Source: Reclinomonas americana ATCC 50394 (Eukaryota). From it: a stretch of DNA of 64,000 nt. The stretch is from contig PS015039.1 of the NCBI GenBank assembly GCA_048213135.1, positions 180,619 to 244,618 on the forward strand, in the 5' to 3' direction. The notes below the pieces were generated by a model. It was not told the DNA's origin. It saw only the letters and a program-made list of their open reading frames with translations, and did no database searches. The translations under genes and the position numbers were made by a program. Below, piece after piece: positions 7,401 through 60,600 of the stretch. Numbering within the stretch: position 1 is the stretch's first letter; each line of letters starts with the position of its first letter.

Positions 7401-10400
7401 ATGACGGTGCGGGTGGGACGTTTAACAAGACGTTGACGCTCTCTGAAGGTGCGTGTTTGTGTGCGTACAGAGAGCGAGAGAGAGGGAGAGAGGGACAGCG
7501 AGCAGCGTGTGTGTTTGTTTGTTAGTGTGCGGGCTTGCGTGATAAGTGTGGTGCTGATGGTGGTATCACTCGCTGTTCACATGCGCAGCCAACATGCCGC
7601 CCACGGACATCGCACTGTCAAACTCGTCTTACGTTCCGCCAACCACGGTCCCGCAAACAGCTGTCGGATCGTTGAGTCGAACCGATCCGAACACTGTGGA
7701 GACGGCTGTGTACACGATTCAGGGTGGAGCACATGCTGCGCTCTTCTCGATTGCTGGAACAAGTTTGCGCCTGGTCAATGTGGGGCAGGTCGGCACGAAC
7801 CTGTCTGTGACCATTCGAGTCACCGACTCTGGCGCACTGTGGTTCGACAAGACGTTTACCATTGTGGATGGTGAGTTGGCGTTCATGGTTGATGGTGATG
7901 TGGTGTTGGTGCTGACACACCACTTGTTCTGCGCAGTGAATGTCCCGGCCACTGACATTGTGCTGTCGGCTTCCACGTATGCGCCGCCAACGGCAGTCGC
8001 CAATGTTGTGGTCGGCACACTTTCTGCGGTCGATCCAAATGTTGGTGACACCCACACGTTTATGGTGAGCGGCGGCACCGATGCTGCCGTGTTCAACATT
8101 CTTGGCGCCTCGCTTCGCATCACTGCCGCCGGTCAGATCGGCACTGGCTTCCAAGTAGTCCTTCGCGCCGTCGATGCTGGTGGCTTGGCATTTTTCAAAA
8201 TGTTTACCATCACACAAGGTCGATAGCTGCGACTCATTTGCGTTGCTGTCGAGAATCGTCCTTACATCCGTGCGCTTACTCGCAGCACCGGTGCCACCCA
8301 CGAGCATTACTTTGTCCGCCACCACGTATGCTCCGCCGACACCTGGGGCCAACACGGTGGTCGGCACTCTGACTGCCACCGATCCGAATGTGGGTGATTC
8401 GCACACATTTTCGATTGTCGGCGGGGCCGATGCGATGCTGTTCAACGTCAGTACGAATCGACTGCGATTGACGAATGCGGGTCAAGTGGGCACGAATTTC
8501 GTGGTCATCGTACGCGCCACCGACTCTGCCGGCCTAACCCTGGACTTCAGTTTCACGATTACACAGAGTTACACGTCGTGCACTGCTCTGTGGATCTATT
8601 GATTTCTTGCCTCTGTGCTCACGCGACTGTGTTTTCGGGTGCAGTCAATGTGGCGCCAACCAACATTCTGCTCTCCACCAATGTGTACGTCTTCCCTACA
8701 ATGGCAGCCAACCAGGTTGTGTGCAACCTGACAGCAGTGGATGCCAATGTCGGTGATTCGCACACGTTTTCGATTGTTGGCGGTGCGAATGCTGCACTCT
8801 TCAACATCGCCGCCAATCAGCTGCGAATCAGTGCCGCCGGAAGTCGTGGAATGGGTCTCCGTGTGGATCTGCGTGTAACCGACGCAGCAGGTCTCTTCTA
8901 CGTCAAAGTCGGCGTCATCATTGATGAAGGTGAGGAAAGAGCGAGCGGCAGATGTCTGTGTGCGCGTGTTGATTGATGATCACATCTTGTGATTCGTTAG
9001 TGAATGTGGCGCCGACCGGTCTCGCCTTGTCGAATCGGCTGTACATTCCCATATCAGGGACCGCCAATTCTGCAGTGGGACAGCTGTCGGCCACGGACCT
9101 GAACTCGAACGAGGTATTGACATACTCAGTAGCTGGTGGGCCGGCCGCCAGCCTCTTTGATGTCCAAGGAACAAATCTGGTTGTCCGGTCGCCGACGCAG
9201 CAGGGCCTGAACTTGCAAGTGACACTGCAAGTGACCGACTCGCGTGGGCTGTCGCAGTCACAGTCGTTCACTATCACTGAAGGTTCCGTTTTTCGCTTTG
9301 TCCGTCATTGTGGTGCTCCGTTGGCGACTGACTCTCTTGGGGATTGTTGTTACAACAGCCAATGTGCCACCGACATCCATTGCGCTGGTGCACAACACGT
9401 TTGCTGTGGAACCCGCGGCGGTGGGCATGACGCCGTTTGCACGACGCGGAACCGTCATTGGACCGCTAGACGTCAGCGACAACAATTGTTGCCAGACGCA
9501 GACATTGACGATTATCGGCGGGCGATCTGGGTCGAAATTCAACGTCACCGGCTCGAATCTCGTGGTGGACGCAGACGACCTGGCTGGCAGCAATCACGAA
9601 GTGCAAGTGCAGACCAATGACGGCAACGGTGGAGTGTACGCGCAGAACGTGTACGTCTTCCAAGGTGCGTGTGTGCCCGTTGTTGTGAGCAGTGTTTTCT
9701 GTTGTGTTCCAACTTTTTGTGTGAATGTGCCGCAGATTTTGGTACCCAGACAGCGCGCATCGGCTCGGGAAATGCCTTTATTCGAGTGCGTGGAGAAATG
9801 CTCTGATCGAGATCCTGGTGTGCTCCCTTCCTCCTTCTCATCATGCTTTGCGCAGGGGAGCTTGTCTCGCAGCTTTGATGCCTCGCTACCGCTGACGCTG
9901 GACTTGATCATGGACGGAGTGGCGCCTGCTGATGTCGCAAAGATGACGTTCGAGTGGGGAATCTATTCGCAAGCGTTGCGTTGTGTCTGTGCGCGAGTTG
10001 GTATCCTGCCGTTTCTGATCGTGCAATTTGAAAAACAGGACCGGCTCACCTTCGGTCAAAGTCGCCTCGTTTGGATGGACACCAAGCGATGGTTTCGCGA
10101 TTATTCCAGCCAACTCATTCGTTCCTGGAGTCGCGTACGAAGCCGAAGCGTGGGTAACGCATCCGCTGACTGGACGAGGTGTGTTGTAGCATTACTTTCC
10201 ATTTGCCCGCAACCATTTGCGATGGAGCTGACGTGTCGTAATCTCGTTTCCGCAGTCCTCATTCGTCGTTTAATCACGGTCAATGTGCCGCCGACTCGTG
10301 GCATGCTTGTCTGTTCGCCGTCTGAGGGAGTGGAGCTGGAGACGGAGTTCGACCTGGTGGCCACTGGTTTCCAAGATCCTGATTCGCCAATGCCGCTGAC

Positions 10401-13400
10401 GTATACTTTCTTTGTGCTCGATCCCGAATCCAATCAGCAGGTGCCGTCATCCCCTGTCTGCCAGTCTCCCGCTGTATGTTGCTGTCTTACTTTGGTCTCA
10501 TTTCTGTGCGCCGCAGTTGACTCTGGGATCGGGTCCATCGGGCAAGGTCAGCGGGGTCAAACTGCAGCACTTGTGCCGCGCTCAGGATCAAGCCATCGTT
10601 GGTGTTACAGCGACTGATGTTGATGGTGGCCGGTGAGTCGTTCACGCACCTCCAATCTCTTGCCGACTTGCTGACTCTTTTCGCAGAACGTCGGTCACCA
10701 CTGTCATTACATTGCATCGCAAGATGTATGCCGACTCCACTTCTGTGCTAGCCGCAGTCGATACAGTGCTGTCGTCGGCCAGTGCCGTGAATATCACGGT
10801 GCGCGCTGAACAGTCATTGTTGATTGGCGTCGCCGTCCGTGACTCACTCTCATCGGTGCTGGTGCAGAGTCCTGGCGCCGCTTCAATTGTGTTGAGCACC
10901 GTGACAGCCAGTTTGTCTCTGCTGAGCGGCAGCAGCATGCTGTTTGGCAATAGTGACACTTCTCCAAGTTAAGTTGGCTGGCCAGCATTCTCGTCTCATT
11001 GATGTCATGCCATTGACGCAGCGGTGCACATGACAGTCGTTTCCCCTTCCGCCTTGACGCGCATGTCGGAGGTCGTGCTTGCCGCCAGCAGTCATGTGTC
11101 CACGGGCGACGGACTGGAATTGGCGTCGTTCGCCTCTGTGGTGAACAATGTGGCGAATGTGAGTGCATGGTGCCTCAATTATACTCTCTGCTACAGTCAG
11201 GAACTGACGTTCGTACCACGCCACACAGGTGACTAGCAGCTTACCAGCCGCCGACATGCAGGTCGTGCGGCAGAACCTGGTATCCGCGGCACGCGCAGTG
11301 GCGCAGAATCTGTCGGCATACCCGTCGACTGCTGCGCTGAGTGTGCGTTCGTGTCAGCGCGCGTCGTTCTCATTGCGTGCGAGGTGTAGTTAGCAGCTGA
11401 CCGATGTTTTGCTCTCTTGTTGTTGCAGTCACTGGCCGAGGCCGTGTCGACCATGCTTTCGCTGCCGACGACAGACGAAGCAGATGCGATTGCCACTCAG
11501 TGCGCCTTGGAGCCGGTGTTGAATCAGATCGCACATCGCACAGTGGCTGGACTGGTGAGTCTATTGTTGTGCGTTGAACATTGCCGTGCATGCTCACTTG
11601 GTGAGCAGACCGGGAAAGAGGGTGCGACAACGGTTTCAACGCCAAACTTTACGTTCCGAGCCCAAAAGGTGGACCCAACTGTGACATCGGCTTCCAAGGG
11701 AGCATACTCGGGTGAGCCACAAGCCCTTCAAATCGACAAGTGTCCTCGTGGAGTTCTCACCATATATTGGTTTCTCAGTGGCATTTGAGACGCTGACGTC
11801 TGCGCGCGGTTCTGATGCGCTGCAAACTCCACTTGTAGTCTTGCCGCATACGATAGGCCAGCGACTCGCCGGTGACGCTGATCACTTTAACGCGCTGGTC
11901 GAAGTGCGTCCTTTGGTTATGTACAGTGCATGTACAGTGATTTGCTAACTGTCCGTGCCCTCACAGGTGGGCTTTACTGGCGTGCCGATTGTCAATGCGA
12001 CCAACGACTACAATAAGAAGGCGCAACCGTCCAAGGTGTACGCATACTCGGTGCAGGTGTGCTTGACGACTGAGACATCTACTGCCAATCGTGCGAGTGT
12101 ATCTGACGCTTGCTGCGCAGAGTCCCGAAGACACTGTATCGGTAAAGGACGAGCAGGAGCCACTGGTTCTTGTGATTCCCGAGTGGCAGAGTGTGATTGG
12201 CCAGTACAACCAAACGTTTTCACGGATTGCCATGTGCATGTTGCAAAACTGCACCAATGCAAGTTGCGCAAATGTCACTATCGCAGACAGCGCTCATATT
12301 TGTGACTTACATCGCCGCTCCTTCGGTGCGCAGCGGAATCGGAGTATCGATTCAACGTGACCACCGCGGCGCCGATGATGATTGAGTTGCCGAATACGTG
12401 GATTCCACTGTGTGTCTCTCGCGACGTATGCAAGACCGGCAATCGGTTGAGTGCCACCGGACTAAGCACATACATTGTGGTGGAACCGATCGTGAGGGGC
12501 CAGCTACCGAATGTTGTGTGTTTGTGCATGCCTCTCTCACGGTGTTGCTGTGTCACTGACGAAGAGTGGAAACAGGTCACTGGCGTCTTTTGTGCCACCA
12601 GTCACATGACCGACTTTGTTGCGTTTCTTGTTGGTGTTTGCGTGGTGTGATCCAGTTGTGTTGAATAATCTTCATCGTCCATGCAGACGCTGGATCTGTC
12701 GATCCTGCCAAAGATCTCGTTCACGTTTGCCAGTCCGGCGGATGCCAATCTGATTGCGAAGCACAACGTGTTCCTCAGCCCAACGTTCTTCCTCCTGTGC
12801 ACATATTTTGTGCTGTTTGTGGTGACTGTTGTGGTCATGTGGCGTCGCGATCGCGCTCTGGACGTGGAGGTATGTCGCTGGCCTCTAGTCTCGGACACGC
12901 ACACAGACATTCCCTGCGTGCTTGTTCTCAATCATCATTCGCCCCATGAATAGGATGAAAGTGCGGTGCAGCAGCGCCACAAGTATCTGGCGCGGCTCGC
13001 TGAGCTGGCGGCTGTTCGTGATCGCGAAATGCAGGCTGTGGAGGCGAAAGTGGGGAGGGACGCGACGATACCTGCGACGGCACCCACGATTTCTGTTGAT
13101 GACGGCGATCACCTGCGAGAGAGGGTGCAGTCTCGACGACGTGGTCATCTACTGGGCGTGGCGTCATGGCTGCATGTACCCATGGAGTCCTCGTTCATCC
13201 TGCCCGCGCCACCTCCGGCAGTAGCAGACGACGGGTCAGAGCGTGTCGCTTCCGCCCGTCGCCGCATGTCGCGGTTCGTCGAGGAGCCAGTTGAAGAAGA
13301 AGAGGAGTCGCCGGTGCGCTCGGCTAGTCGGCGAGGAGACTTGCGGCCGATTGGATCCATGATCCGACACCAGGTTTGCACGACTCTTCGGACTCTTGTA

Positions 13401-17306: not shown

Positions 17307-19031
17307 TCATGGGAGAGGCTGTACAAGGCGCGGCACCACACGCGGTCTCGCTCGCTTTGGTGCGCTCTCGTCGTCCACCGACATGGGCTGCACGGTGACT
17401 GGAGTTGCACTGCTTGCCAGTGGTGTCGCACTGGACTCAGCCTCGACACTCGTCTGTGCGCACTTTTCCACTCTCCGCTCCTCATCCTCCCGTCCCTCGT
17501 CCTCGTCGTCCTCATCCTCCTCAGCTGACGAATCCTCGTCGCACACAAAGGCAACGCGTGCAGGAACCTCCCCGCTTGATTTTGAAGCCTGCAAGTGCAC
17601 TGCGGACTGGTCAGCGGAGCCGTCTGCAGCCGCGTCGGCCATCCTGCGCACGGTGCACTTCAGATCATCACTTGCTCCCCCACATACGCACGCATTCACA
17701 CACAACACACAGGAGACCACACGCAACTCGACGTCTGGCACCACATCCGCAACGACACCGGAGGCCGATGCGGCGACAGTGGCCGCAACCGTGGCTCGCT
17801 TCCGACCGCCACCGCGCTTTCGCGTGGCGCCGCCCACCTTGGTGAAGCGCACGGCTTCCTCCTCGCGCATCTTACTCAAAATAGCATCTCGTTCTGCGTG
17901 GGCATTGATGGTCGGTGCAACAGTGTGACACAGAAGAGCAGAGCATGGAGGAAAGCACAAACCTTCGGCGGCAATGGGACTGCCGAGCTCGCCCTCCGCA
18001 AACGTCAAGAACGAGCAGTAGCCGTCGGAGCTCGACACACACAGCAGTCGACCGTCTGCGCTCCACGCCACGTCGGTGATGCTGGCGTAGTGCAGGTCGG
18101 TGGCGAACGCAATCGGCGACCAGTTCTGCGTGTCGTACACAAAGACGGCATTGACACTGGCGACAGCAAACACCATACGGTACGGCAGCGCCGCCATCGG
18201 TTGCACTTCGTCCACGTCGTCAGCGTCGTCATGCAGTTTGTGGTACAGCACGGGCGAGAAGCGCGCGGCCACAGTCACTTTCTGTCCCGGCAGCGGCAGG
18301 TGCAGCGCAGGGCGCGAGAATGAGTGTCGCGAGAAGACGTAGGTGGTGTGAACGAGTGGTCCATTCGGATCGTCCCGATACTGCGCCGTGGGCGCCAGCA
18401 TGATGGAGCCGTCGGGCGAGAAACACGGTCGACGGAAGAACGTGGCGATCGTTTCGTCGCGGAAGTAATTGTGTGCAAACTCACCGCCATTGTGTGTGTA
18501 CGCTCGTCGCCGCACATTGTGAGTGCAGGCGTACGCGAGACGACCCTACACGTAAACGTGTGAGACGGCGAAACAGCAGACAATGCACCACCAGCCAACT
18601 ACGGAGCGTACCTTTTGCGCCGAGGTCACCGAGCGCGAGTAAACGCGGAACCCACGATCGGATGACAGGGAGAGCAGCATGGTATCCAGTGGATCCCACG
18701 CCACACCCTGGACATAGTGCGACGCCTCTGTCAGTCGCAGCAGCGACTTGCCTGCGCAGAAAGAGTGTCACACAGTGTTTGCCATTTGCGCAGCTGACAC
18801 ACACCACACCTTTCTCCGCATCCCACACAATCACCGTGTTGTCGATGGAGCCGGTGACCAACTTGGTGCCGTCGGGTGACCACGCCACGTCGTACACATC
18901 GGCCGAGTGTTCACTCAGCATCTTCCCGTTGTCCCAGCTCTCCTTGTTGTCGGAACCGGCCTCCGGAGGTCGCCCAGTCAACCGGTACACAAACACAGCG
19001 TGATCGTCGCCGCACGAGGCCAGTCGATCGT
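17307..19031 (-). CDS. CHAF1B: Chromatin assembly factor 1 subunit B (p60/Cac2), WD40; 5' end in gap
   Basis: HSADVYDVAWSPDG, FRDETIATFFRRPCFSPDGS, LPYRMVFAVAS..VYDTQ..LHYASITDVAWSADG..SSSDGYCS; C-terminal RPRVVP resembles the Asf1-binding B-domain. Confidence 0.9.
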
Positions 19032-24536: not shown

Positions 24537-27500
24537 CTATCGCGACGAAGACGCGCCTCCGGTGGCGGCAACTGCTGTTGCCGTTGTGGTGGTCGTCGTT
24601 GTTGAGGCGGTCTTGGGGGTAAACATGGAGAAGAGCGAGCTCATTTGCACACGCTGTCGCTCACTCTTCTCAATGTAGCCCGTCACAAACTCGCGCAGCC
24701 TCTTGAGCTCGTCGGCGTCCGTCGGCGGCCGGAATGTGCCCTTGGCGCCTGGTCTCCGCCCTGCCGCCGTCTCTTGCATGTGGCGCTCGGCAGCGGTGGC
24801 GTCAAACAGATGCCGCAGGTATTCCAGCTGCAGCGCCACATCCGTGTCGGTCACGCACCGCTTCACCTCCGGCTTGCGGTGACGGAAATCGGCCAGCGAC
24901 AGCTGTCGCGTCTCGGTCTTCTCCTCGTTGCCGGGCGTGGCCGAATATACCACGCAGCGGTAGTACTCTTGCAGCAGGTCGCGCACCATGCGAGTGATTT
25001 GGTTGGCGATCGGCGCGAATGGAATGCCCTTCAGCACGCACGGAGATTCGAGCTGCGGCGTGACGCGGGTGAGACATCCTGCACATCTCTCTTTCCTGGC
25101 AACAACAACAAACGCACCGGATCCGAGTCCATCTGCTCCTGCAACACACCCTTGATCGGGTGCACCGAGCCATTCCAGCGCACCTCCAGCGGCTTGCATC
25201 GCCGGTACCGCTCCGCCGGTGCGGCAAGTGGATCGTAGGCATACTCGTCGCGACCGGTCGTTGACGAGGCGTGCACGGTAGACGGCAAGCCGAGGTACTC
25301 GGCCAGCAGCGCGCTATCGGTGCCCTCAATCGGACCACACAGGCGCTCCACGGGCGGATACACTTGTTGTGCCAGGTACCTGCGTGCACCACACGTGAGT
25401 GGTTCTCCGAAGAGGAAATGGCTCTGTGCTGCACCCCGCACCATTCATAGTCCACTGTGTGCTGTCCGACCACCTCCTCCGGGTGGTAGGAGCGATCGGC
25501 AATCGGTGTGTTTGGCGTCGGTGCCATGCACACCACGTACGGAATGCGCAGGCCAACGTGCACCGGCACGTTCTTGGCCAGCATGCGCTTCGCCACCTGC
25601 ACGTGTGGCAGATTCTTGCCGTCCGGGTAGTCGTCGACCGCCTGCAATCAAGATATTGAGTTGTCTCCCATGGGTGCGAAAGAAGGATGAAGTGAGCATG
25701 CCGACCTTGGTGAGACTCTTGGAGATGACAAACTGCTCCAGCGGCACCGTCACCACGGGCGACCGCAGCTGTTCACCGAGCTCGCGCAGCAGGCGATGAA
25801 TGTTCGACACCACCTCCTCTCGCGGCTTCTTCGACAGCAGCTCACTCAGCACTTTGCTGCGCGGGATGCAAACAAAAACAACAACGACAATCAGTTCATC
25901 GCTGCCGCGATGCGCGACGCATGCGTGGGAAGAGAGCAACGGAACTTGGAGATGATTTGCGACAGCGGGCACCAGTCGCGACGGACCATGTCCAAACCCT
26001 TGACCTCCTTCTTCTCCACCAGCGTGCCGTCCGGCATCTCCGTAATCGTCACTGCGGCGTACTTCTTCTTGCGCAGCAACAGCATGCGGGAGAAGATGCC
26101 GTCAATCTCAATCTCCAGATGCGTGTACCGCTGGTTGACCTCCTTCTTCACTTCGTTGCCGATCTTGCGCGCCTCTGCCAGATCCGTGGTGTGCGTGTTG
26201 ATCATGACCGAGTCGGTATCGCCGTACACCACCTGGGCGACACAGTCAGCATCAACCAATTGTTTCGCCTTTGGCCGAAGTGCAGCCCTNNNNNNNNNNN
26301 NNNNNNNNNGAGCACAACATTTGCTTCACCACGGTCCGCCGACCCAAGCGCAACGAGGTGGGGTGCTCGTTGAAGTGGTGGGTGTGAGTTTCACAGTTTC
26401 GTGCTCACTTCCCCCTCTTCCTTGTTACGCAGGATGGCACATGGCAGCTGGCCGAGGTGCCGCGCGCCGAGGACTTGCTGGACACGGACGAGGAGAACGA
26501 CAGCGGCGACGAGGTGGAGGGTGCTGGGCCGTCGGCCAAGAGGCAGAAGCGTCGACAGCGCGTCAACCACAAGAGCGTGCTGCCGAATCTGATTCGCGGA
26601 CTCGTGGAGCGCCGTCGCCAAGTGAAGAATCTGCTGGCCAACGAGCGCAACCCGGCCAAGCGCGACCAGTACGAAATTCGCCAAAAGGCGCTGAAGCTGA
26701 CGGCCAACTCCATGTACGGCTGTCTCGGTTTCTCGCACTCGCGCTTCTACGCGCAGCCGCTGGCCGAGATCATCACTCGCCTCGGTCGTGAGGCCCTGCA
26801 GCGCACCGTCGATTGCTGCACGAACGAAATGGGACTGGAGGTNNNNNNNNNNNNNNNNNNNNNNNNNNNNNNNNNNNNNNNNNNNNNNNNNNNNNNNNNN
26901 NNNNNNNNNNNNNNNNNNNNNNNNNNNNNNNNNNNNNNNNNNNNNNNNNNNNNNTACGTGAGGCCCTTGGCGGAGCCGTAGTACGCCTCGTACGTCGGCA
27001 GGTCGCTCTCGATAATCTGCCAGAAAGGGTGAGTGTCGACAACCACCAAAAGTGGCCCGGCGACGAAGCGCAAACCTGTCGCGTGGTGCCGAGTTGCGTC
27101 ACTGCCAGCTCGTTCATGCTGTACGACTTTTCGCGCAAATGTTCCTGCGAAAGAGAACGGCACGCACGAGTGAGGGAGGATCAACAGAGTTGCGCGTGCA
27201 TGCAAATCAGCACGCACTCGTGCAGCCAGGTATGTGTCGAGCACGAGACGACCGCTGGTCACGGCCTTCTCGGCCCACGTCGACTCACGCGTGCCACCGG
27301 CGCCAGTCTGCAGCTTGGGGAACCTGCGCAAGGCAGAGTGAGACGGCACGACAAGAGCAAGGCGCACGCAACGCACGCAACTCCTTGCGCTTCAGTCGTC
27401 CGATCTTGTGCCACCCAGGCACCTTTAGCGCCTTGCACCGATGCAGCAGCACGTCGAGATCGAAGCCGATGAAGTTGTGGCCCACAATGACGTCGGGATC

Positions 27501-29914
27501 GAGGTTCTGAATGCGCCCCATGAGCATCAGCAGCAAGTCGCGCTCGTTGGTCGTCGGTTCGATCACGGAGCGGCTGTTGGAGGCACCGCTGCCCGGCTGC
27601 CGCGGGGGGAAGCCGAAGGGGAAGACGGCGTTGCCGAGGCGGCGGACGGCGGTGAACGAGGTGATGCCACGCTCCCAGTTGACCGTGGGACCATCGGCGC
27701 TGACCGCCGGGTGGAAAATGGCACTGGCCACGATGATTTCGCGCTGGTTGGTGGTCTCGTTGAGGTAGGTCTTGAGCGACAGTGACATCAACGACATTGG
27801 CGGTCCTTCGCCATTCGGCAGCGGCGGTTTCGCATCGAGGCTGATCGACTTGGGGTCGTTGATCGACAACTCGAAGCGCGAGTGCGACACTGGCACGCCG
27901 TCGACCGGTGCAAAGTTCCGCACGCGGATCCAGCACGGGCCGTGCAGTCGGCGCTTCAACAGCAGGCGCTCCAGCGACGACGACGTGCGACCAAACACGT
28001 GCGAGTACGTGCGGCCGGAGCACAGGTCCTCCGGGAAGGCCGGCTCTGTGTGGCACGATCGAGGAGGTTGGTGATGGGTTCTGCAATATGTACAAGAGAG
28101 GAGGCGTCGACGGTTGCACTCACCATTGCTGCTGTAGATCACCTTGATGTACTCGTGATTGTGGCGCGGCACATCTTCGAGCTCAAACGCGTAGCGGCGC
28201 TTGACGGGCTTCATGCGCACATTGCGCGCACGCACCTGCTCGACCATGACCGACACCACCTCCTCCATGACGTCGTCCGCAGAGGGATGGAAGTCGAGCT
28301 CGTTGCCGCGAATGTCGTGCGCAAACTCGCGTGGCAAGAAGAACAGCTCGCGCGGAATGTTGTCGACGACCAGACACACACTGCGCGCGGCACGCATACA
28401 AACACACAGGTGATCAGTGCAAGGGGCAGCGATGGGGAAGAGCTGCTTTGCATGCTCACCTGGCGTACTTGTTGGGCGCCACCTGCGCCTTGCAAAAGAG
28501 GTACACGCACGACGCATTGCGCTCGTACTCGTACGCATCAAAGAAGAAGAGTGACAGGGAGCCGTCGTCGGCCACTGGCAACTGTGCGCCGTCGTCACTC
28601 ATGATGGTGGCTGTGCGAGTGCGTTGTTGTGAGCGCGTGCATGATAAACATGGTGGTGCACACCGTGCGCGCNNNNNNNNNNNNNNNNNNNNGCGGCAGC
28701 CGCCTCGGCCGCAGCCTGTGACGAGCAACGGGTGAGACACCAATCGTGGCAAAAAAACACAAGGGAGAAAAATTACCTCGGCCAGCGTGGACGCCAGGGT
28801 GGGAGGAGCGGATTTGCGTTGCTGAGCAGCCTCTTGCAACTTTTGCAACACACTCGGATCCATCATCACGTCGTCACCATCGTCGTCCTCGCACGGGAAT
28901 TCGTCTGCCGAACTCGCGGTGGTGGCTGCTGTGGCGGCAGTCGGCGCGGCCGGTCGCTTGAACACCGGCACAGTCGGCACCAACTGCGCCGGTGCTACGG
29001 CAGTCGGCAGAATCGACTTCATGGGAATGGCGGAGACGAGAGGCGCCGGTCGATCATCAATCTCCGACAGCAGCGACTCGAGCAGCGCATCGGCATCGTC
29101 GCCACCGGCCGTCGACCCACCATTGGCCAACGCGGCCGCTGCAGCCGCCGCCGCCGCTCCAGCCGACGGCATCTTGGGGATCTCTGTCGCCGTCGGAACC
29201 AGTGCCGACAGACCGCCCACACCGGAGGTACTGCCCTTGTTGCCACCTGCGAGGAATGATGAGAAAGAGGAGAGAAACACGGGCGGGGCGAGCGACGCAA
29301 TCACGAACCGAGAAAGTAGCTGAAACTGCGCGGGTCCAGCTCAGCCCTCCTCCGTCGCGGCTTGCGCGGCTTCTTCTCCTTTTGCTCGCCTACACAGCGA
29401 AGTCAGTCCTCGGCTCACTGTCTCCACTGGAGAATTCTGCGCCACTCACCATCCTCCTCGCCCGCGCCGGGTCCTTCATCCGAACTGTACTCGTCGTAAA
29501 AGTCGTCCTCCATCTCCACGCGATTGCCGTCTATCGCACACACACACGCTCAGCATCACTCCAATGCACTCACTTGCCAACACACTCACACACACGCACC
29601 CTCGTCGACAATGAACCCGTCCATGTCCTCATCCTCATCCTCGTCCTCTTCCGGTTGCGGTCGCCGCCGAGGCGCGCTCTTCTTGCCCTTGGAGCGACGA
29701 CTACGTTGCCGAAACACACCCACATCATAGTCGCCCTCATCTCCACCCTCCTCCTCTTCATCCTCCACCTCATCCTCCTCCTCATCACGCCCCTGCACAC
29801 AACGACTGAGCAACACACACATAGAGAAGAGCGCGCATGAACCACGCAAACCTTTCCCTGCTTCAGGCGCTTCTTCGCCGCCAACTCACGCAACCACTCC
29901 TCGCGGTCGCCCAT
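24537..29914 (-). CDS. POLA1: DNA polymerase alpha catalytic subunit
   Basis: N-terminal [60 protein letters not shown] (26205-26226), [34 protein letters not shown]; region III lies on a flipped contig. Confidence 0.97.
26310..26840 (+). CDS. POLA1: POLA1 internal exons (end of region II and region III) on a gap-flanked contig in the opposite orientation
   Basis: [49 protein letters not shown]|gt; once flipped it joins the intron preceding the VVYGDTDS exon. Confidence 0.95.
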
Positions 29915-33572: not shown

Positions 33573-36500
33573 ATGTCGAGCAGGAAGCGACCGCCAGCAG
33601 AGGCTGCGGCGAGTGCGTTGGTTGTCCCGCCACCTGTGCTGGGCAAACGCGCTGCTGCCTCTGAGGACAACTCGCTTTCATCGTCGTCGTCGCCACCGCC
33701 GCACGAGCAGTGGAGCAACGGTGACAACGATGAGCCTCCGGCCAAGAAGCGACCAGGGTCTGTCTCGCGTGTCTGTGGCACAGTGGGAGAGAGAGAGAGA
33801 GAGTTGACTGACGGCGTGGCGTGTGCGCAGATCGAGTATCGACGATGCGGCGGCCTTGGCGATGATGCAGTTGGGATCGCCGGGCTCGACGGCGCGACCG
33901 TTGCGTGTTCTCTTCTGTGTGTTGTGGCTCACTGCTATCGTTTGTGCGCTCACTGTGCATCGGCGACTCGGCAGGCGCAAGAAGACCAAGACGATTGGGG
34001 GTGTCGCGTCGGCTGGCAAGTCCTCGTCGAAGAGTGCGCCGGCTGCGGTGCAGTCGCTGTCGACGCCACCGCCCACATCGCGGCGGCCCATCGTCCATCC
34101 GACGTCGACGCCTGTGCTTCCCGCAGATGACGGCTCGTTGTCGGCCGGCGATCAGAAGCTGATGCATGAGTTGATTCAGCAGATGGTGGCGTTGGATCCA
34201 GAAGGGGTCTACTATCCGCCAGTGCTGGTGGAGATGCTGCCGAACTACTTGGATGTCGTGCAGCAGCCGATCTCGGTGTCGGAGGTGGAGAGTCGTATCA
34301 GCCAGCGTTATTCGTCCTGGTCGGAATTCCTGGTGCGTCTTCGTAAGACCTCTCCCCTCTCCTCCTTCTCTCTCTCGCCTTATTCTCACTCGCGTTCTCC
34401 TCTTAACGCAGGGCGAATTGCGTCTCGTGTTTGTGAACGCCATGAGGTACAACGCGCCGAAATCCATCTTTCACGACATTGCGCGCGAATGCAACGACAC
34501 GATCTCGGCATTTGTGGACGCGCACGGACTGGGCAGTGTGGACCCGGGTCCCCGCGGCACCATTCCGTTTGTTCCCTTCGTACGGCCAGCAGCCTCATCG
34601 TCCAAGAAGAAGAAGAAGAAGGGACCGAGTACGCCGTCCACACCCGCGGTACGGCTCTTTGCGGACGAGGACGACGACGGCAGCGTGCACAAGAGCAGCA
34701 ACAACAAGAAGAAGAAGCAGTCAAAGGCGGCGGGGTCTGCAGGCGGCGTCGCGGCTGAGGATGCCGGCGCGTCGCCGTCGAGTCCGACCCTGCTGCGGTT
34801 ACCGCGCTTGTCGGTGTCGTTGAAGGTGGCCGAGTCGGAGGACGGGAATGGGCACGCCGGTGCAATGCCGCGGAGTGCCGGCCGTAGCGACAAGAAGAAG
34901 AAGAAGAAGGCATCGACTGCGGATGAGGTGCAGGGAATGGATGTTGATCCACAATCGCCGGCACCATCAGCCGGCGGTGGCGAGGCACAGCTCATCACGC
35001 CACCACAGCCGCCGTCACGCAATGCTGGTCGCGGATGTTTCGTACCGATGTTGTTGGGTTTTTTTGGTACGTTACTATTGATCGACTGACGCCCTCACGT
35101 CGCTGCAGCTGCACGCTTGTCGCTGGCAAGTCGCACCGTGCTGACCACCATGACCAGCATTGTGGACCGTCTTGTCAAGTTGCGTGGGCGACGCCTTTCG
35201 TGTCTCCGATGGCTGTTGCTGACCATGCTGGTTGCAGATTGGACGAATATCAAGTGTTTGTCGCACCGGTGGACCCGGTCGCTGTGCCGACGTACTACGA
35301 AGTCATCACGAGACCAATGGATTTGAGCACGCTGCGCTCCAATGTGGAAGCCGGTCACTTTAACACGCTGGAGGAGTTTGAGGTGTGTGGTCTGTGAGTG
35401 TGAAGAGTCTTATGACATAAAATCGACTCACATGGTGTCGGTGGGGATGTGTAGGAACCACTCATGTTGATCTTTGACAACGCCTCCGTCTTCAACCCGC
35501 CCTCCAGCATCTTTGCACAGGAGGCACAGCGTCTGCGTAACGAGGCTCTCAAGTTGCTCAAGGCCGCTCGAGGTGTGTTATGTGCACGCCCTCCTTTAAC
35601 AACCATGCCTGCCCTTCATTCATTCTGTACAAATCGCTCTGCAGCCGGGGAACCATTGTCGGTGACAACCGTCGCAACCCCTGCGTCGGTCGGCAAGGAC
35701 GCGTCGTCGCGGAAATCGGGCAGCCGGCAGGCCGTGGGCGGCACGCCTGTGCCATCGAACCGCGGCAGCACGAGTGTCACCACTACCACACCGTCGGCAA
35801 TGGTGAGCGAGTCGCCGCTCGCAGCTCCCGCGCCGCGCCGTGTGAGCGTAAGCAAGAAGGAGGTCGTCGCCCTCGCCTTCCCCATGTCGGAAGCGAAGCG
35901 CGCACGATACGTACAGCAAGTACCCGAGTCGTTCCAGTCGCAGATGTTGGCGCTGGTCGACAAGCTGGCGCGCAAGGACACACACCAATGGTTCGAAATG
36001 CCAGTCACCGACGATATTGCACCGGGCTACAGCAAGATCATTCGCAAGCCGATGGACTTTTACACGCTGCGCAACAATGTTCGCAGCGGGCTGTACGTGC
36101 ACTTTGAGGACTTTGAGGTGAGCGGGTGACGGTCTATTTGTGTTTGTGTGGCCTGCTCGTGTCTCACTGTGTGTGTGTGTTGGCACAGAAACACGCGCTT
36201 CTAATCTTTGACAATTGCACGACGTACAATGACGCCACGACTGAGTTCCACCAAGTGGCTCGCACGCTGCGCGAGGTGGCTGTGGAGTTGCTGGGCAAGC
36301 TGCGCGACAAGCTTGTCGCGCACAACACGACGGTGCTGGAGGCGGAGGAGAAGAAGTGGCAGATTGCGAATGGCATTTCTCCCACAGAAGGAGAGCGCAA
36401 ATCGCGACGTGCCAGCAAGAAGCGTGAAAAGGGTGAGATTCTCTACCCGACCGTGTGTTGTGTGATGCGAGTGGCGCTCACGTTAGCGGTGCAGAGGATG

Positions 36501-51687: not shown

Positions 51688-54600
51688 TCACCGCAGAAGG
51701 GAGAATGGCCGTCCCTCAGCACCGGCACTAGCTCCAGTTGGTCCCATGACCGCACCGTGCTGTACCAGCAGACGGGTCTGTCGTGGCAGCAGGCCCTTGA
51801 CTCCCGCCAGACTCACTCCAACAAGATTAAGTGATCGCAAATCCACCAGCGGCTGTCGGCATCACAGCAAGTCAGGACACATACACACAAAGACGACTCG
51901 CACTCCACGCACCGCAGCAGCAGCAACACCGTCACCCTGCGCCGCCAGCGATATCGCTGTCAGCCAGTGGAACGTCAGCTTGTCGCCCATTATCTGGAAG
52001 TGCAGCACATCGACGTGTTCGCCGTCTGGTGTGAAACGATACAGCGCCTTTTCCTTGTCGCTCGTCGGTCTGACAACGAGGCGGATGGTGTCAAGAGAGC
52101 GCACATCCCGAATGCGACCTCCGCGTCGCGTCTCGTACCACGTGCCCTGCAGCACCCCCCTGCAGTCAGCGAGATGTCCCGAATACAGAATGCCACTACC
52201 CACAACGCACCACGAAGAGCGCGCCAGGCGACAAGCACAGGTTCACGATACGAGGTGCGCAGCTGAAACGATGCCAGCTGCCTCGTTCAACGCCCGATTC
52301 GACATCCCACAGTACAACACCGCCGTCGTGAGACAGAGATGCGAGCGTGTTGCCGGATGGATCGAACTCGACACTGCGTGTTGTCGCGTGAGTCGTGCGC
52401 CTCTGCGTTTGTCAATGCAGCGGCGACAACGGATTACCAGGTGATGAATGACCGCTCGTGTTTCGGGCTGCACAGGGTCTTGCTCCGCCGGTACAGCCGT
52501 TTCTCGACGTCCCATTGCCAGATGGTCACCTTGGAATCCATTCCGCCCGACGCAAGAAGCTGCACTCCGTCGGCACGGGGCTCACAGAATCGCACGCACT
52601 GCATGATAGGCAATGAGAAAACGGGAGCGAGTCGACATCACAAGACACATATGAACGCACCGTGACACCGTCGCGGTGGCCGAGCAGCGTCTGCGCCGGT
52701 GACACCAAGGTGTGTACAGTCTGCAACGCGCGAAAGTGAGATCGAATGCAATCAGAGTTCGGGCACAGATTGCTTCACCTCGCCAGCCAGTGGCAAAGTC
52801 CAGATGTCGATGCGATTGTCGCGACGAGCAGTGGCCTGTCCGCCAAGCAAACGTGAACAACGTTGTCAAAGGAAACAGAACACGAGTACGCGCTCACCAT
52901 TGTCTTTCCGTCACTCGACAGCGCCATGCTGACAGTCGAGATACTTCCACGATCAATGTAGAACAGCAGACGCCCGTCGTTGAGTGCCCACACAAAGGTC
53001 TTGCCGCCGGTGCAGCTGGCAGCGAAGAGAACTCGGTCGGATGCCGCGCCAGAGAAACAGCTGCTGATGAAGCGGTTCTCCATTGTGGAGCGACGCTCCA
53101 AAATCACGGTAGGCAACACCGCCTGACCACTGGCGGCCTCCGTGGTCCACGCGCGTGGACGTGGCGATCCGCTCATGTAGTCGACCGCCACCACGTGGCG
53201 CAGGTCGGGAGAGCAGTAGATCGCCCGTTGAGAGTCCGGACGCGGCGGTGCCACGATGCGCTCGTCACCGAGCATCCACGAGCGCACCGTCTGATCAGCA
53301 GACGCGGAGACAAGCCGCTCACGGCCATTTCGCTCGCGGGCAAAGCGAACACTGCGCACCCATCCGCTGTGTGCACTGATACTGCGCAGAAGGCGCCAGC
53401 TTTCCGTGTCGAACAGACACACAGTGCAGTCGTTGCCGCAGGACGCAAGATACGAGCCATCGGCAGAGAAGTTCAGATCCCACACCTGCACTTGCACGTT
53501 AGCGGCACGCCACAACGATTGAGAAGCGGGAAGAACGCACCCAGCCGGTGTGCTCTCGCAGCGTGTGCTCCACCACCCACGTGCTGTCGTCGGAGGTACT
53601 TTGCAGCCACACACGGACGGCCTGATCACGTCCGCCCGTGGCGATCACGGAAGGCAGCTGCGAACGGACGGCGACGGCATTGACACTGTCGGAGTGCTTC
53701 AGTGGTTTGGAGCGCGGAACCCACACTTGTTCGTCGTCTTGCTGTGAGGTCGAACCGGCGGGCAGCTGCTGCTCCCACAGGCGCACCATTCCGTCCCAGC
53801 TTGCCGACACCAGCACTTCGACGCCGTCAACTACTGCAAACGTCACATCTTGGACGGGACCGGAGTGGCCGTGCAGCACGCCGTGCGGAAGCAGCTTCAA
53901 GCGACCCGCTGCACACTTGTAGAGCCGAATCTGCGCGATCAACCAAGAAAGAATGAGCACTGGCGTGCACAAGAATAGTGAAAGACTGACAACTCTCGTC
54001 ATGCCGCCGTCCACCTACCGTGTGATTGGAGAAGCCGACAGCGAGCAAGCCGAGGTGAGGAGTCGAAAATGCCAAGCTTTCGGTGCAGTACGGGCGCGAC
54101 GTAGCAGTGTGAGCCAGCTGTGCGACGAATCAATGTCAGGCCGCTGCAAGTTAAGGGTCACGCTTGCCAGTTAAAGACGCAACCACACGCTCGCACAACA
54201 TGGGAGCCACTTGCAGGTCACAGAGGTTGACAGCAATATCTGCAGTGGCAATGCGCATTTAAAAACCCCCGTGCAACAACAGTCACCCAGTGCTGACCAC
54301 GCAACAGCTCTCATCGGTGAACGAGAAGGAGCGGTCAAACTCGGTGCACAGTCGATTCATCACATGTTGCAGTTCGGTGTCATTCACATCGACCAAGTCC
54401 GCGTGCGTGAACAGCACCAGCAAGTCAGGCTGCGTGCATCAACATGAGTGCTGTGCGCCACACTCAAGACGATCCCACTATGCGAACGAAACTCTCAGTC
54501 CGCGGATCGATGCCAGGTGCGGTGCGCATGTTACCAGCATGGACAACCACTGCACTTGGTCCTGCAGTGATCGTGCTGTGGCAAGGATGAAGATGTTGAG

Positions 54601-57600
54601 CAAGAACAATGCAACCCGCCTGCCAGCACAGCAGCATCAAGACGCAACAGGAGCTTAGGTCGACGGTGAGGCACACCAGCGCCACCGACTGCCCTGTGGA
54701 AGGCACTGTATCCCCGCATATGAATGTTGGTCACACGGATTGAAGAAACACACAAGAAATTGCAACGGAGAATGCACACACACACCAAATGCGGCCGTCA
54801 TGTCGGACTCGTTCTCCACGACAACAATCTCGAAGCTCGCCTCCTCCGTATCGATGCGACTCACGCCACCGCTCTCATCGACCGACGACGACGTGTGACG
54901 ACGGAGAACTCCAACCAACTCGGCTTTGCCGGATTCAGGCGGACCGAGCACCACACTGCGAAAAAAATGTGCATGAGCGAGAAGACGACAGCCACTCAGC
55001 GTGCCACACAAACACGCAACATGCGACAAGAAGTCATTGGGTGACGGGCGCGGGTGCCGGGACTTGCAGACTCGGCGGTCGAATTGCAGCAGCAACTATC
55101 GTCGACCTGGTCGACCAATTCCAGCCGGTCGTCGTCGCCTCGTTGGAACAGGCACACATCGCAGCCCTTGCCACCCGACGCCACGTATCGTCCATCCAGC
55201 GAGAATTCGACCACCGGCGGTGCATCCTTGTGTTCGTGCACCACACCGCAATCGACTCCGTCCTCGGCATACAGACGAATCGTGCCATCGCTGCAACAGC
55301 TCACGCATTCGGATCGAATCACACCATCGCACACGCCACATAAAAATGCTTACCGACACGCCGTGACCATCAATGGTGAAGTCGGGCAGCAGGCGAGCGA
55401 ATTGATGCCGACATCGTGACCCGGCTGACACGGCACCTCCGTGACCGGCAGCTGATTGAACGAGCAGCCCTCCAAATTCGCACCCTCCAGCTTCGCATTC
55501 GGCGCCCACACGCCCTCCAAATAGGCACCACGCATGTCGGCACCTCGCAAATCGACGCCCTCCAGCGACGCAAACGAAAGATTCGCTCCACATGCCGCCA
55601 CGTTGCGCATGTCACCGGCCAGTCGCGGATCGGTGGCGAATTCGAAGCCACACCAGTTGAGAAGCGAAATGGCTGAACGATGCAAGTTGTGTGCTTTCAG
55701 CAACACAAACAGGAAGGCAGAGAGGTTGTGCACGCAGTGCGTCTCACCATTGCCTGACGCGACGCTAATCTTGGCGGCGTATTCCTTGTTCTTGGAGAGT
55801 CGGACCAAGCGGACGAGCTGATCTTGCAGGCGTGGTGTGTGCTTCAACAGATCCGCATAGAAGACCAACAGAGCGTAGAACTTGGTCAGCGGCAGCGTAT
55901 TCAGGGCAGTCACACCCTGGGCGATCCGAATAAACTCCTCGTCGTCATCATCGGGAGCACTGCATCGCCAGCGCGTGTTAGACGCTGCTGCACCGCACAG
56001 AGGCCACCCCAATCAACGCAACTCCAACAGCACCAGCGTACTGCGCACGTAAAAGTACTGCCGGATCACGTCGTAGCTGAAGCTCCAAATCTGCGGCAGA
56101 ATAATACACGTCGGTTGTGCAAGCCCCACAACAACCACGCAGTCGATCCTCACCTCTGACTGGGAGCCAATTCGGTACTCCAGCACAGTCATCTCGAGTG
56201 GGCACGAGTCCAACAGAAGCTCGGGGTCCATGACAGCGCCGTCCTTGTACAGTGGACCAAGGCGCTTGGCTGGATTGTGCGGCTGCACAAAGACAAACTC
56301 GCGCGACACAAACATCTTCAGCGCCAACCGCTGGCAATAGTCGAGCAGTTCGTCCTCGGTGGGCACTCGGTCGTCAACCCGGCTGCGCGCATCCAGTGCC
56401 CGGCGCATGCGCTCGCGAACAAACTGGTCCAACAGGCGCCACTGGAGCGGGATTCGCCCGCCCAACAACGCCGCGTGGCTCATGGTCGACTCGCACAGCT
56501 GGTCAATGACCAGGCGCAAAAACAGCGGGAAACGCATGAGGTCGCTCAGTTCCGTGGCGGCACTCAGCGCCTCGCTAATGACATCAAACATGTCCTGGCG
56601 CGGCACGTACGCTCGCACGAAATCACGAATCTGCGAGTTGGACAGCGGAGCAAGTGCCACCACGCACAGCCGCCCGGCGTCCGGCTGACCAGTGCGCGTG
56701 GACAGCGGAGCGAACAGAGTCGGCAACTCGGGTTTCACCGGACTCAGCACGAAGCGCTGGCGACACGTGATGACCAACTTGGCATTCTTCCAATCGGCCA
56801 GCTGACAGACGAGCACGGGCGTACAAGAGTGAAAAAATGCGGTTGTGTGTGTGGAAAACAAGGACTCGGCGCAAACCTCAGGGAACTGAGTGAACACGCT
56901 CTTCTCCACCATGAGACTCTCCCAACCGTCCAGGAAGAACACCGTCGGCAAGTTGCGCAGCTCGTTGATTTCGCTGTCGGAGAAGCTGACGCACTCTGGC
57001 GCACGACGCAGCCACTCGCTCGGTCCAATCATGCGGCCGTCGACCCTAGCAAACGACAGCGTCTGGTGCACCGGAAAGAAATTCTGCGAGCCTGCACCCC
57101 ATCGTTCGGCCAGCGAACGAGTTGCCTGCACAGAGAATGTTCTGCGCGCGTGTGCACGAGAAACACATAAGTCAGCTTAAGGCCTCGCACTCGTCATCCG
57201 CTCGCCCCGTTGAGACGCAACGTTTTCCCGGAACCAACATCAGCCAAAACCACCATGACGCTCTGCACAGATTGGATGTGAGCGAATGGTTGTGGCAACA
57301 AGCGGCGGACAAGAAAGCAAGGAGACCTTGTGAGGCGACTGAAGAAAGGTCTCTAGACGGCCAAATAGGTCCTGCAGTCTGTTGCCTGCACCGGGTGCCT
57401 TTGGAGCAATGTACACGTCGGTGGCCTTGAAGCGCTGCTCCAGCAGGGTCTCTTGTGTCATCAGAAACATGTCGAGTTTGGTACGCACTGCCGCGATGAC
57501 ATATGAGGACAGAGAAAGAAAGCACAGCATTTTTCTCTCGATAGACAACTCACATCCAGAGCCGAGGTTGACATCCGACACCGTACGCGGTAGCACACTG

Positions 57601-60600
57601 AACGCGTCAGTGTCGGAGCTTGAGGCACCCGCCGAAGGCAGAGTGACTGAACCGCTGCGCTGGTTGAAACTGCGCGCCATCCCACCGCTCGCATGCATGT
57701 CGTCGTACAGCAGGCACTCGTTCCAGCGCTCTGCGCGGGGCACGATCATGTCAGCACTCGCAAACGGAATGACAAGGAGGTGAAAACAGGTCGCACACCA
57801 TTGCGCTCCCGCATGGCCAGCAAGTGGTAGTCACGGTCGGAGAGGCACGGGTCACTGCTTCGTCGTGGCAGCGCCACCGGCTGCAGAAAGGTGGTGCTGG
57901 TGACCGAGCGGGCCAGCGTCGCTCGCTGCGTGTCGGCGTCTTGTTCCGCTGCGGGTGAGGACAGTAAGGCCGCTCCCGCCGCCGCCTCGTCGTCATCATC
58001 GCTGACGTCGATGAACGAATCTGTATCCAGCACGTTGCCGACAGGAACCGTGACGTAGTGGCGGTCGAAGACGTCCAGTTCGCAATCGTCGTCACCGGCG
58101 ACACTCACATTGTCGGCACTCACATGTCGCACAGGTGGTGTGGTACCGAGAGACGATGGCGAGCTACTGCGCGAAGCGGCCGACTTGACCAACACAGGAG
58201 TCGGCAACAGACGCAGTGCACGGCTTGCCACGGCGTCGCTGACCAGGGGCAGAACGAAAACGGTGGAGAGCGGGATGTGTGCCGACTGCTCGGCGCTGGC
58301 GGTCAGCACTGCTGACTCGGTGACGGCGGCGGCGTCCAGCGGTCGCACAAGGAGCTCGTCCACTGCGAGCAGGTGGGTGAGAATCAAAGTGAAGCACCGC
58401 TGGAAACGCGTGAGACAGCGACTACTCAACGATGTTGCAGATGCTCGTCCAACACCACGCGGCACGCCTGAATGCGCGCCTCAAAGGCCAGCTCCTCGAA
58501 TCGCTGCGAGTCCACTCGAAGGCGAAGCTCAAGAGCAACAAAGTCGGGAGTGGGCGTGGCCGATTGCAGGTCGACAAACTGCAAAAATAAAAAAAGACGA
58601 AACGTGTTAGATCGATCGATGGTTGATCGCAAGTACATCTCAGCACTACGCACCGTCGGATCAACGAATGGTGCTGAGTGCTCCCGGATTCTGTGCAGCA
58701 CATGGCACAACAAGGCCGCCACTGCGTAATTGAGATGCACGTACGCCTCGAAGAGGAGCTCCTCCACCAACTGCGGCGGGAAAGTAATAGAGAGCGGGTG
58801 AGAAAGCAAGAAGGGAAGATGGGGATACAAGGAGACGCAACTGCAGCAGCCTGCTCGTCGTCACTCAGCAGCGGCAGTGTGCATTGCAACACTGTGCCGA
58901 CCACAGCAATGTCGCAGCGGGCGGCAGCCAATAACAGGGCATGCTGTCCGACGCGATTGCGCTGCACGAGAAGCATTTCTGCGGCCAGAGTCGGCGGAAG
59001 GGCGGCCACAAGAGCCACTGCATTGTGCGAGGTGAGGAAGGAATAAAAAATGGACGGGTAAGAAAAAGAAAAGAGAGAGAGGAGTGCGACGCACCAAGAC
59101 CGGCCATCGCTGCAGACTTGCGCTCACTGCTCGCGTCTGTGCGCGAATCGTCCGACCCGCTGTCGTCGGCGGGCGACGAAACCTAACAATCAACAAGCAA
59201 ACCGTGAACAACAACTCGGATGGAGCTCACATGCCACAGAAACCAACGCACCGTAGAGGAGAGGTTGCCCTGCGAGCCCACGGCGAGCAGCATGGGAAGA
59301 TTGAGCAGCTCGCTGGTCATCAAGGTGGCCAGCTGTGCCGGAGGCACGACCGTCAGCTGGAGAATGGCCACGAAAACTTGCGGATGGGCAAGAGCGGCGA
59401 GTGCCAGCGGTGAAAATCCCACACCAACGGCGATTTCGTCGACCAAAGCCGCGCAGCTGGTGGGACGCAGTCAAAAAAACGGACAGCGACCGGCCGGTGA
59501 GAAGAAGCGGGGAAAATGTGCGCAACAGTTCGGCGGGAGTGACGGTCGAGGCAATGCGGCGCAGCTGAGCAAAGTCGTCGTTGAGAATGGCCTGTTCCGT
59601 CGGCGAGGGGGTCGATGAGTGCACTGCCGATACAATGATGCAATCGAAAAAAAGGCAACGCACCTTGAAGAGAAGCATGCACAGAGCTGCATGTGCGCCG
59701 CCGGTTCCGTTCGGTGTCTGCGGTGCTGGCGAAGCAGCCGAGACGAAGCCACCGGATCCACTGGCCGAGTGACCGGAGGACATGGACGAGGCGCCGGGTG
59801 AGCCGTCGGTGGGCATGGAGCGGTTGGACGGGCGCCGGACGGCCACTGCGGGATCAGAAGAAGGGTAAGGAGAAGGGGAGGAGGGAGGAGAAGGGGGAAG
59901 GGGAAGGAGAAGGGAGAAGGAGAAGGGGAAGGAGAGGGAAAGGAGAAGGGGAAGAAAAAGGTGAAGGAAAAAGGGGAAGGAAAAGGGGGAAGGGGAGGAG
60001 AAGGCGGGGGGAGAAGGGGAGGAGAAGGCGGGAGGAGAAGGCGGGAGGAGAAGGGGAAGGAGTAGGGGAAGCAGAAGGGGGAAGGAACAGAAGTAAGGAG
60101 GGAAGGAACAGGGGGAAAGAAAAGGGGGAAGGGAAAGGGGGAAGGAGAAGGGGGAAGGAGACGGAAGAGGGGAGCAGTGAAGCGAAAATAAACCAAGAAA
60201 GAGAGAGAGAGCGAGAGAGTAAAAACGCAACTCTTGCCAGATAGCTGCTGGGCAGGGAGGCGTCTCTCCACCACCAGCGTCACCCACTGCTCCGACACCT
60301 CCACGTGCCCATCTGTGTGCAGCGTCGCAAAGTACACGTGCGTGCGTCCCTCTTTCTGCGCTCCCAGCACCTGTCGTGAGATACAGCGCACCGGGGAGCA
60401 TGAAAGGCACCCACAAAACGCACCTGAGCCAGCACCTGCACCTTGGTCTGCACATCATCGGTCGATGCACCGAGAGGGCGTACCGTCAACTCGTCCTGAT
60501 CAAGTGTCGGTCAACAGGCAGTGCGTTGCGAAAAAAGAAGGCAGGCAGCGACTCGCAGCGACGCAACAAGGCGAACAAGAGCCGAAGAGTCGGTGCTTGC

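Follow-up and report, generated by a model that had tools for sequence, protein, structure and literature searches.

STAND receptors with an extra, family-foreign domain built into them include the plant NLRs with integrated domains, in which integrated decoys are well described (PMC4246468), and mouse NLRP1B, which was called an integrated decoy in a 2026 PNAS article (PMC13037943). ROCO proteins (Roc-COR; LRRK2 and bacterial Roco), large multidomain proteins in which a G domain is combined with repeats, have been discussed as candidate immune receptors in brown algae (PMC11378527), and pseudoGTPases serving as binding modules are documented for the N-terminal domain of AAGAB and the Ras-like domain of the dynein light intermediate chain (PMC12490416, PMC4359372). 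STAND and 'AP-GTPase' modules are described as separate components of conflict systems, with no G domain inside a propeller in the accessible portion of that account (PMC7159879). The gene analysed in this study lies on the minus strand of a 64,000-nucleotide stretch of the draft genome of Reclinomonas americana ATCC 50394 (GenBank assembly GCA_048213135.1, contig PS015039.1, positions 180,619 to 244,618; hereafter the window, in whose coordinates all positions are given). The product of the gene is most likely a STAND switch of NACHT-pentapeptide-WD40 build, with an insert of about 160 amino acids between blades 2 and 3 of a 14-blade double propeller. The literature searched yielded no account of a NACHT protein with a G-like domain set into its WD40 part.

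The proposed reading of this gene is that the sensor of the lineage's STAND protein acquired, between blades 2 and 3, an alpha/beta module with a degenerate P-loop, whose elements in their order and spacing appear to fit a Ras/Roc-like G domain best. As a catalytically dead, nucleotide-binding-like module, the insert would provide an added binding or regulatory surface at the ligand-sensing end of the protein, and its binding or modification would change how the propeller keeps the NACHT module shut. Confidence in this reading as a whole, that is, a dead, degenerate P-loop module added to the sensor of a STAND switch, is evenly balanced; we infer the fold of the insert, its loss of activity and its role in sensing. 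STAND/NLR-like receptors usually vary at their ends, and it would be unusual for a recognition surface to be added by setting a nucleotide-binding-like module into a WD40 propeller. Were the insert a true GTPase mimic, it would exemplify bait integration in a protist. As a feature of one gene in a draft assembly, it is offered as a lead rather than a result.

Compared with the systems above, the gene shares with the plant NLRs with integrated domains and with NLRP1B, as a proposed integrated decoy, the building of an extra, family-foreign domain into a STAND receptor. It differs from them in that a beta-propeller houses the extra domain, no helper receptor was detected in the window, and likeness to a host target is only a candidate property. 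With the ROCO proteins it has in common that a G-like module is part of a large, repeat-containing multidomain protein. An analogy to the AAGAB and dynein light intermediate chain modules, which combine a G-like pattern and lost catalytic motifs with a binding role, is also proposed; those pseudoGTPases rest on solved structures, whereas the insert is known here from its sequence and sits in a propeller.

Exons and domain architecture of the gene

The gene model was built by reading the three minus-strand frames and joining exons at GT..AG sites, which gave a single stop-free frame that starts with the exon of the NACHT P-loop, reaches the last exon and encodes at least 1415 amino acids. In order, the frame encodes a NACHT-like NTPase, pentapeptide repeats, two WD40 blades, the insert and about twelve more blades. 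Approximately 14 blades were counted by eye, which suggests two seven-bladed propellers. The presence of a C-terminal repeat sensor is supported by Pfam matches to pentapeptide and WD40 families, the latter on both sides of the insert.

The introns are very uniform: each of the 17 in the model is of the GT..AG type and measures 55-92 nucleotides, with 11 of them at 62-66 nucleotides. Their donors are unusual, reading GTTGCGT in six cases, GTGCGT in three and GTTTCGT in one; of the six introns bounding the insert exons, four use the GTTGCGT donor. Acceptors are almost all GCAG or ACAG. Introner-like repeated introns were considered and rejected, as only splice motifs were found by eye to be common to the introns. 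The GC fraction is 0.54 in introns and 0.60 in exons, with a value of 0.72 at third codon positions (GC3). At codon positions 1, 2 and 3 it is 0.63, 0.40 and 0.71 in the insert exons and 0.62, 0.47 and 0.72 in the other exons. The codon-usage log-ratio per codon of the insert exons is +0.31 in the frame of the model versus -0.39 and -0.35 in the two alternative frames; their codon style matches that of the gene in the proposed frame alone.

The insert is encoded by exons R1 (54786..54955), R2 (54649..54693), R3 (54493..54575), R4 (54306..54429) and R5 (54184..54239), all on the minus strand. R1 contains a strand followed by GPPESGKA, a Walker A motif with Ala, and a hydrophobic strand ending in ENES; R2 a hydrophobic strand ending in VDLSS; R3 a helix with QWL and then a loop; R4 the strand LLVLF followed by THAD and a helix; and R5 the strand IAVNL and a short helix, directly after which WD40 blade 3 begins. 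The end of R3 is ambiguous, at either 54493 (63-nucleotide intron) or 54535 (donor GTAACA, 105-nucleotide intron). GPPESGKA, ENES and THAD all lie within exons, and none falls at a splice junction. The five short minus-strand exons are confirmed as real in silico, and their coding status together with the order of their motifs weakly exceeds chance.

These results bear on a preliminary description of this DNA, made from the letters and open reading frames, in which five short spliced exons had been proposed to encode a Roc-like pseudo-GTPase within the WD40 sensor of an NLR. Every insert peptide quoted there is encoded on the minus strand at the place described, with canonical introns and a fitting codon style. 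The resumption of WD40 repeats directly after the insert, with no COR domain, and the degenerate reading of two motifs (GKA for GK[S/T], ENES for DxxG) were likewise borne out. The insert had been placed after about the third WD40 repeat; it does lie between WD40 blades, and the Pfam WD40 traces put two blades ahead of it rather than three.

Upstream of the insert, the Walker A exon of the NACHT-like NTPase (57222..57262, minus strand) aligns to the P-loop of P0004, a member of the Mortierellomycota family described below. The Walker A motif is split by an 80-nucleotide intron (57222 / 57141) inside the Thr codon that follows GSGK, and for this reason the P-loop of the NTPase is invisible in plain scans of open reading frames. 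The main NTPase exon (56154..57141, minus strand) carries a Walker B-like FFLDGWES, a KLVITCR strand and an APLS..QIRDFV motif, and is followed in the gene model by a small exon that closes the NTPase/helical part (56023..56090, minus strand). The next exon (55354..55959, minus strand) contains a helical region, pentapeptide repeats (Pfam Pentapeptide, E 6e-13) and the start of WD40 blade 1 as a weak WD40 trace; the pentapeptide block, of about ten A(D/N)Lxx-like units, lies between the NACHT helical part and blade 1, as it does in the Mortierellomycota family of P0004. The end of blade 1, blade 2 (Pfam WD40, E 1.6e-4) and a linker of about 40 amino acids rich in D, C and S are encoded by 55021..55290 (minus strand), for which an alternative donor is present at 55072.

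Downstream of the insert, all on the minus strand, are the first part of blade 3 (54019..54117), further WD40 blades in 53541..53930 (Pfam WD40, E 1.9e-12) and in 52898..53485 (Pfam WD40, E 3.6e-12, with matches to several beta-propeller families), four short WD40 exons within 52211..52835 (52835-52779, 52720-52661, 52598-52438 and 52373-52211), and a last exon without a Pfam family (51870..52146) that probably encodes the C-terminus and, before it, one or two final degenerate blades.

The NTPase is provisionally assigned to the NACHT type. Searched alone, the main NTPase exon gave no Pfam match, NACHT included. An exhaustive search of 1.84 billion representatives with this exon returned five weak matches (best E 2.8e-5), among which P0001 has a Pfam NACHT match and P0004 and P0005 have many WD40 repeats; since only these five were returned, no close relative's protein is present in the library. 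A word search of the exon against proteins of 679-2000 amino acids gave no match. An alignment of the spliced module with P0004 covers the P-loop and the conserved NACHT strands that come after it, phmmer reaches P0001 and P0004 with E about 1e-5 (whole library), and hhalign against a NACHT profile built from 33 members of the P0004 family gives a score of 98.

Class of the insert

The motifs of the insert follow one another in the order GPPESGKA, IVVVENES, a strand ending in VDLSS, a helix with QWL, a strand followed by THAD, and the strand IAVN. Compared with the G1, G3 and G4 motifs of Ras-like (TRAFAC) GTPases, the order is kept and two of the three motifs are degenerate (GPPESGKA and ENES), with THAD in the place of G4. 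About 35 amino acids separate the Walker A Lys from the first acidic-ended strand. In Ras the corresponding distance is about 41 amino acids, which the spacing of the insert fits, and in Ras-like proteins the Walker A Ser/Thr and DxxG supply the usual contacts to Mg and the gamma-phosphate. Because the Walker A Mg-binding Ser/Thr is replaced by Ala and the switch II DxxG position reads ENES, the insert would be unable to work as a normal GTPase. The P-loop string by itself is no evidence of class, as 15 copies of the bare G-4x-GK motif are present among the 127,996 residues of the window's six-frame translation.

Curated databases and the PDB were queried with single exons, and the spliced insert was compared by script with profiles made for this purpose, the Roc profile and hidden Markov model (HMM) being built from 31 Roc-type G domains fetched from cyanobacterial genomes. 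Global hhalign comparison with the Roc profile gave a score of 9.8 (null 2.4 +/- 1.8, reached by 1 of 200 shuffles). When the P-loop was kept in the shuffles, the Roc score was reached by 1 of 120 and the score against an MMR_HSR1 profile by 7 of 120. The global alignments to the Roc and MMR_HSR1 profiles are weak and colinear, laying Walker A, IVVVENES, the VDLS strand, THAD and IAVN on G1, G3, beta4, G4 and G5 in that order. In the ESM Atlas, the named clusters nearest to R1 were PduV-EutP, Gtr1/RagA, Ras, Arf, Roc and GPN-type families (0.93-0.89), and those nearest to R4, which has no P-loop, were Septin, DO-GTPase2 and NOG1 (0.78-0.75, below lead level). These language-model look-alikes of R1 and R4 point to GTPases as leads, not proof.

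A number of results weigh against assignment to the G domains and against the reading built on it. Exons R1, R3 and R4 had no match in Pfam at E up to 10. Single insert exons gave no usable family in NCBIfam or PADLOC at the same threshold, the sole PADLOC row being HEC-01B (E 0.046), and a PDB search returned only UreG (E 1.4) for R1 and nothing for R4. The Roc HMM scored the spliced insert at 3.1 bits, and 9 of 2000 shuffles scored higher; the local hhalign score against the Roc profile (15.5) was reached by 26 of 200 shuffles. In calibration of the same profile, 30 true MMR_HSR1 G domains had medians of 68.0 (global) and 69.6 (local), and 20 AAA ATPases had medians of 16.4 and 32.5, so that the insert (9.8 and 15.5) falls below unrelated P-loop proteins. 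Atlas scores were at or below lead level, with 151 shared features for R1 versus the usual 170 for true family members. Against the NACHT profile, the global hhalign score of the insert was 15.2 (null 3.1 +/- 2.1), reached by none of 100 P-loop-kept shuffles, and the alignment lays QWLSMLVTCA of the insert on the W..kllITCR strand. The NACHT HMM ranked the insert 36th among itself and 2000 shuffles.

The fit to the NACHT profile is one argument for an alternative in which the insert is no kin of GTPases, being instead a degenerate STAND/ASCE core, such as a partial duplicate of a NACHT domain, or an unrelated alpha/beta fold with a chance P-loop string. The match to the NACHT profile is stronger than that to Roc, the helix after THAD falls in the same alignment on PLS..QI..YV, and the frequency of G-4x-GK strings in the window is in keeping with a chance motif; moreover, kinases and AAA proteins have a P-loop of the GPPxSGK form more often than small GTPases do. 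However, the whole DGxDE Walker B is deleted in the NACHT alignment, and the interval of about 35 amino acids from the Walker A Lys to the acidic-ended strand compares with about 64-72 in NACHT (P0004 and the gene's own module). No NACHT or AAA family is among the displayed named Atlas rows (10 for R1, 4 for R4). Against an AAA profile the insert scored at chance (10 of 80). Partial duplication of the NACHT module present in this gene, in particular, was tried and rejected as an origin, since the local score between the two was reached by 61 of 500 shuffles and is not significant. A STAND/ASCE-type core or another fold is, on this evidence, considered unlikely.

The insert is therefore best described as a degenerate P-loop alpha/beta module for which a G domain is the most likely class, held at somewhat less than even confidence. 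A G domain is favoured by the 35-amino-acid spacing, by the lack of a helix-like stretch between Walker A and the acidic-ended strand, by THAD and by the Atlas leads. Membership of the Roc family, suggested by the Roc-like label of the preliminary description, was not supported: no exon matched Pfam, the Roc HMM gave 3.1 bits, the hhalign scores were below those of the AAA controls, and the NACHT profile fits at least as well. The W of QWL aligns with a YWL seen in 14 of 14 cyanobacterial Roco-type domains and in 0 of 17 small cyanobacterial G domains. THxD is the form that G4 takes in LRRK2 and occurs in 0 of the 31 cyanobacterial Roc-type domains, all 31 of which have NKxD. The insert further differs from the ROCO proteins in its degenerate G1 and G3, in having no match to Pfam Roc (PF08477) and in scoring far below real G domains on the Roc profile. 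Having neither a COR domain, with blade 3 beginning right after R5, nor a profile match, the insert is, as judged from these comparisons, not a member of the ROCO family, and the label 'Roc-like pseudo-GTPase' is plausible but unproven.

Relatives and possible roles of the insert

The overall build of the protein is already known from a large Mortierellomycota family of 1903 database proteins (E <= 1e-10 in searches from P0004) with NACHT, pentapeptide and WD40 parts, examples being P0004 and a Linnemannia/Mortierella 'WD40 repeat-like protein'. Like the protein described here, these have the NTPase, a helical region, A(D/N)Lxx pentapeptides and many WD40 blades, and their NTPase motifs align with those of the gene (P-loop, W..KLLITCR and APFS..QI..YV). 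The family differs in being only distantly related (E about 3e-5, whole library) and in having no insert-like module in any of 120 listed members; many of its members also have an N-terminal ARM_5, which was not found by Pfam in the exons of this gene. Two of the proteins, P0200 and P0237, are about 49% identical to P0004 and are labelled Mycoavidus and Glomeribacter, bacterial endosymbionts of Mortierella-type fungi; these labels could reflect gene transfer or assembly contamination.

In none of the 120 best-listed relatives with the NACHT-pentapeptide-WD40 build does another P-loop-like motif follow the NACHT P-loop. The P-loop motifs flagged in them are the NACHT P-loops themselves, together with one in P0239 located upstream of the NACHT P-loop of that protein. 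A phmmer search of the insert against these 120 proteins gave nothing better than E 1.7, and in P0004 and P0005 blade 2 runs straight into the next repeat. As far as such distant relatives can tell, the insert appears to be a lineage-specific addition. No paralogue of the insert or of the NTPase was found within the 64-kb window, and a profile scan of genome contigs starting from P0004 found no relative.

Class and function of this real, odd, lineage-specific degenerate P-loop insert are put forward as candidate assignments. A binding or regulatory role is the most economical reading, because the insert sits in the sensor of a STAND switch. A more specific proposal is that the insert binds nucleotide without normal Mg coordination and acts as a non-hydrolysing built-in switch or nucleotide sensor that tunes the receptor, in the manner of a pseudoGTPase. 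The Walker A Lys and both glycines are retained, as is the Asp of [NT][KH]xD, which gives guanine specificity in GTPases, in THAD; given the kept Lys and Asp, Mg-independent nucleotide binding may be possible. However, with Ala in Walker A and both the D and the G missing from DxxG, the usual contacts to Mg and the gamma-phosphate are lost, and the reading of THAD as G4 rests on weak alignments. This proposal is regarded as improbable.

In the preliminary description, the insert was taken for a decoy that mimics a host small GTPase as bait, so that effectors of intracellular bacteria that target GTPases would trip the NACHT switch. The position of the insert in the sensor part of a STAND protein agrees with this, as do the loss of catalytic motifs with retention of the overall pattern and the absence of the insert from all 120 relatives, as expected for a recently integrated domain; conservation of the insert, part of what had been named as counting against the decoy, was not observed in these distant relatives. 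The mechanism is accepted in plants (PMC4246468) and proposed for NLRP1B (PMC13037943). Against it, the insert matches no small-GTPase family by sequence, any likeness to a host GTPase is conjectural, and no paired NLR is present within the window. A bait would be expected to stay near its target in sequence, whereas the insert is very far from all sampled GTPases. A decoy would be a special case of a binding or regulatory role, and since no sequence feature favours it in particular, it is speculation and highly improbable. The novelty claimed for an integrated decoy outside plants is also weakened, because NLRP1B has already been proposed as one and a further case would not be a first. Still less probable is the full scenario of a deep-branching protist that independently built an integrated-bait receptor, with a dead small-GTPase mimic in a propeller loop of a NACHT switch triggered by bacterial effectors aimed at host GTPases.

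An artefact, in which the five exons are untranslated, skipped, part of another transcript or brought in by a misjoined draft scaffold, is most improbable: the scaffold is a GC-rich draft with an intron-rich gene and 11 runs of N in the window, and one splice junction is ambiguous, but the stretch from 42207 to 64000 is free of N, every junction is canonical and agrees with the rest of the gene in donor motif and intron length, codon usage is positive in the model frame alone, no Met ahead of the insert P-loop could start a separate gene, and two WD40 blades before a stop would not make a propeller. Block skipping of the five exons with the splice sites of the model breaks the frame, because they total 478 nucleotides, which is not a multiple of 3; an in-frame skip is conceivable in principle via a different donor, a phase-0 GT in the linker after VDQ joined to the blade-3 exon.

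Neighbouring features of the window

Directly upstream of the gene is a long low-complexity stretch (59190-60485, both strands) that is open in several frames, rich in P, S and L on the minus strand and in G, E, K and R on the plus strand, and probably not coding. Exons of DNA polymerase alpha were found at 24805-28598 on the minus strand (Pfam DNA_pol_B_exo1 and DNA_pol_B), with a best database identity of 40% for the exon searched and the nearest entries from Mucoromycota, chytrids, a Physarum transcript and EukProt, which marks the organism as a poorly sampled eukaryote. A CAF1B/HIR1-type beta-propeller exon (17310-18545, minus strand, E 1.6e-55) and a weak bromodomain match (33808-34755, plus strand, E 3.5e-4) are ordinary nuclear housekeeping neighbours. 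At the start of the window (1-10614, both strands), many open reading frames repeat an N-[VM]-[AP]-P-T-[DN]-I-x-L-S...Y-x-P-P-T unit, and one of them (9235-10614, plus strand) has a Pfam REJ match (E 3.9e-10); they are probably parts of a large repetitive gene of surface or adhesion type broken by N gaps.

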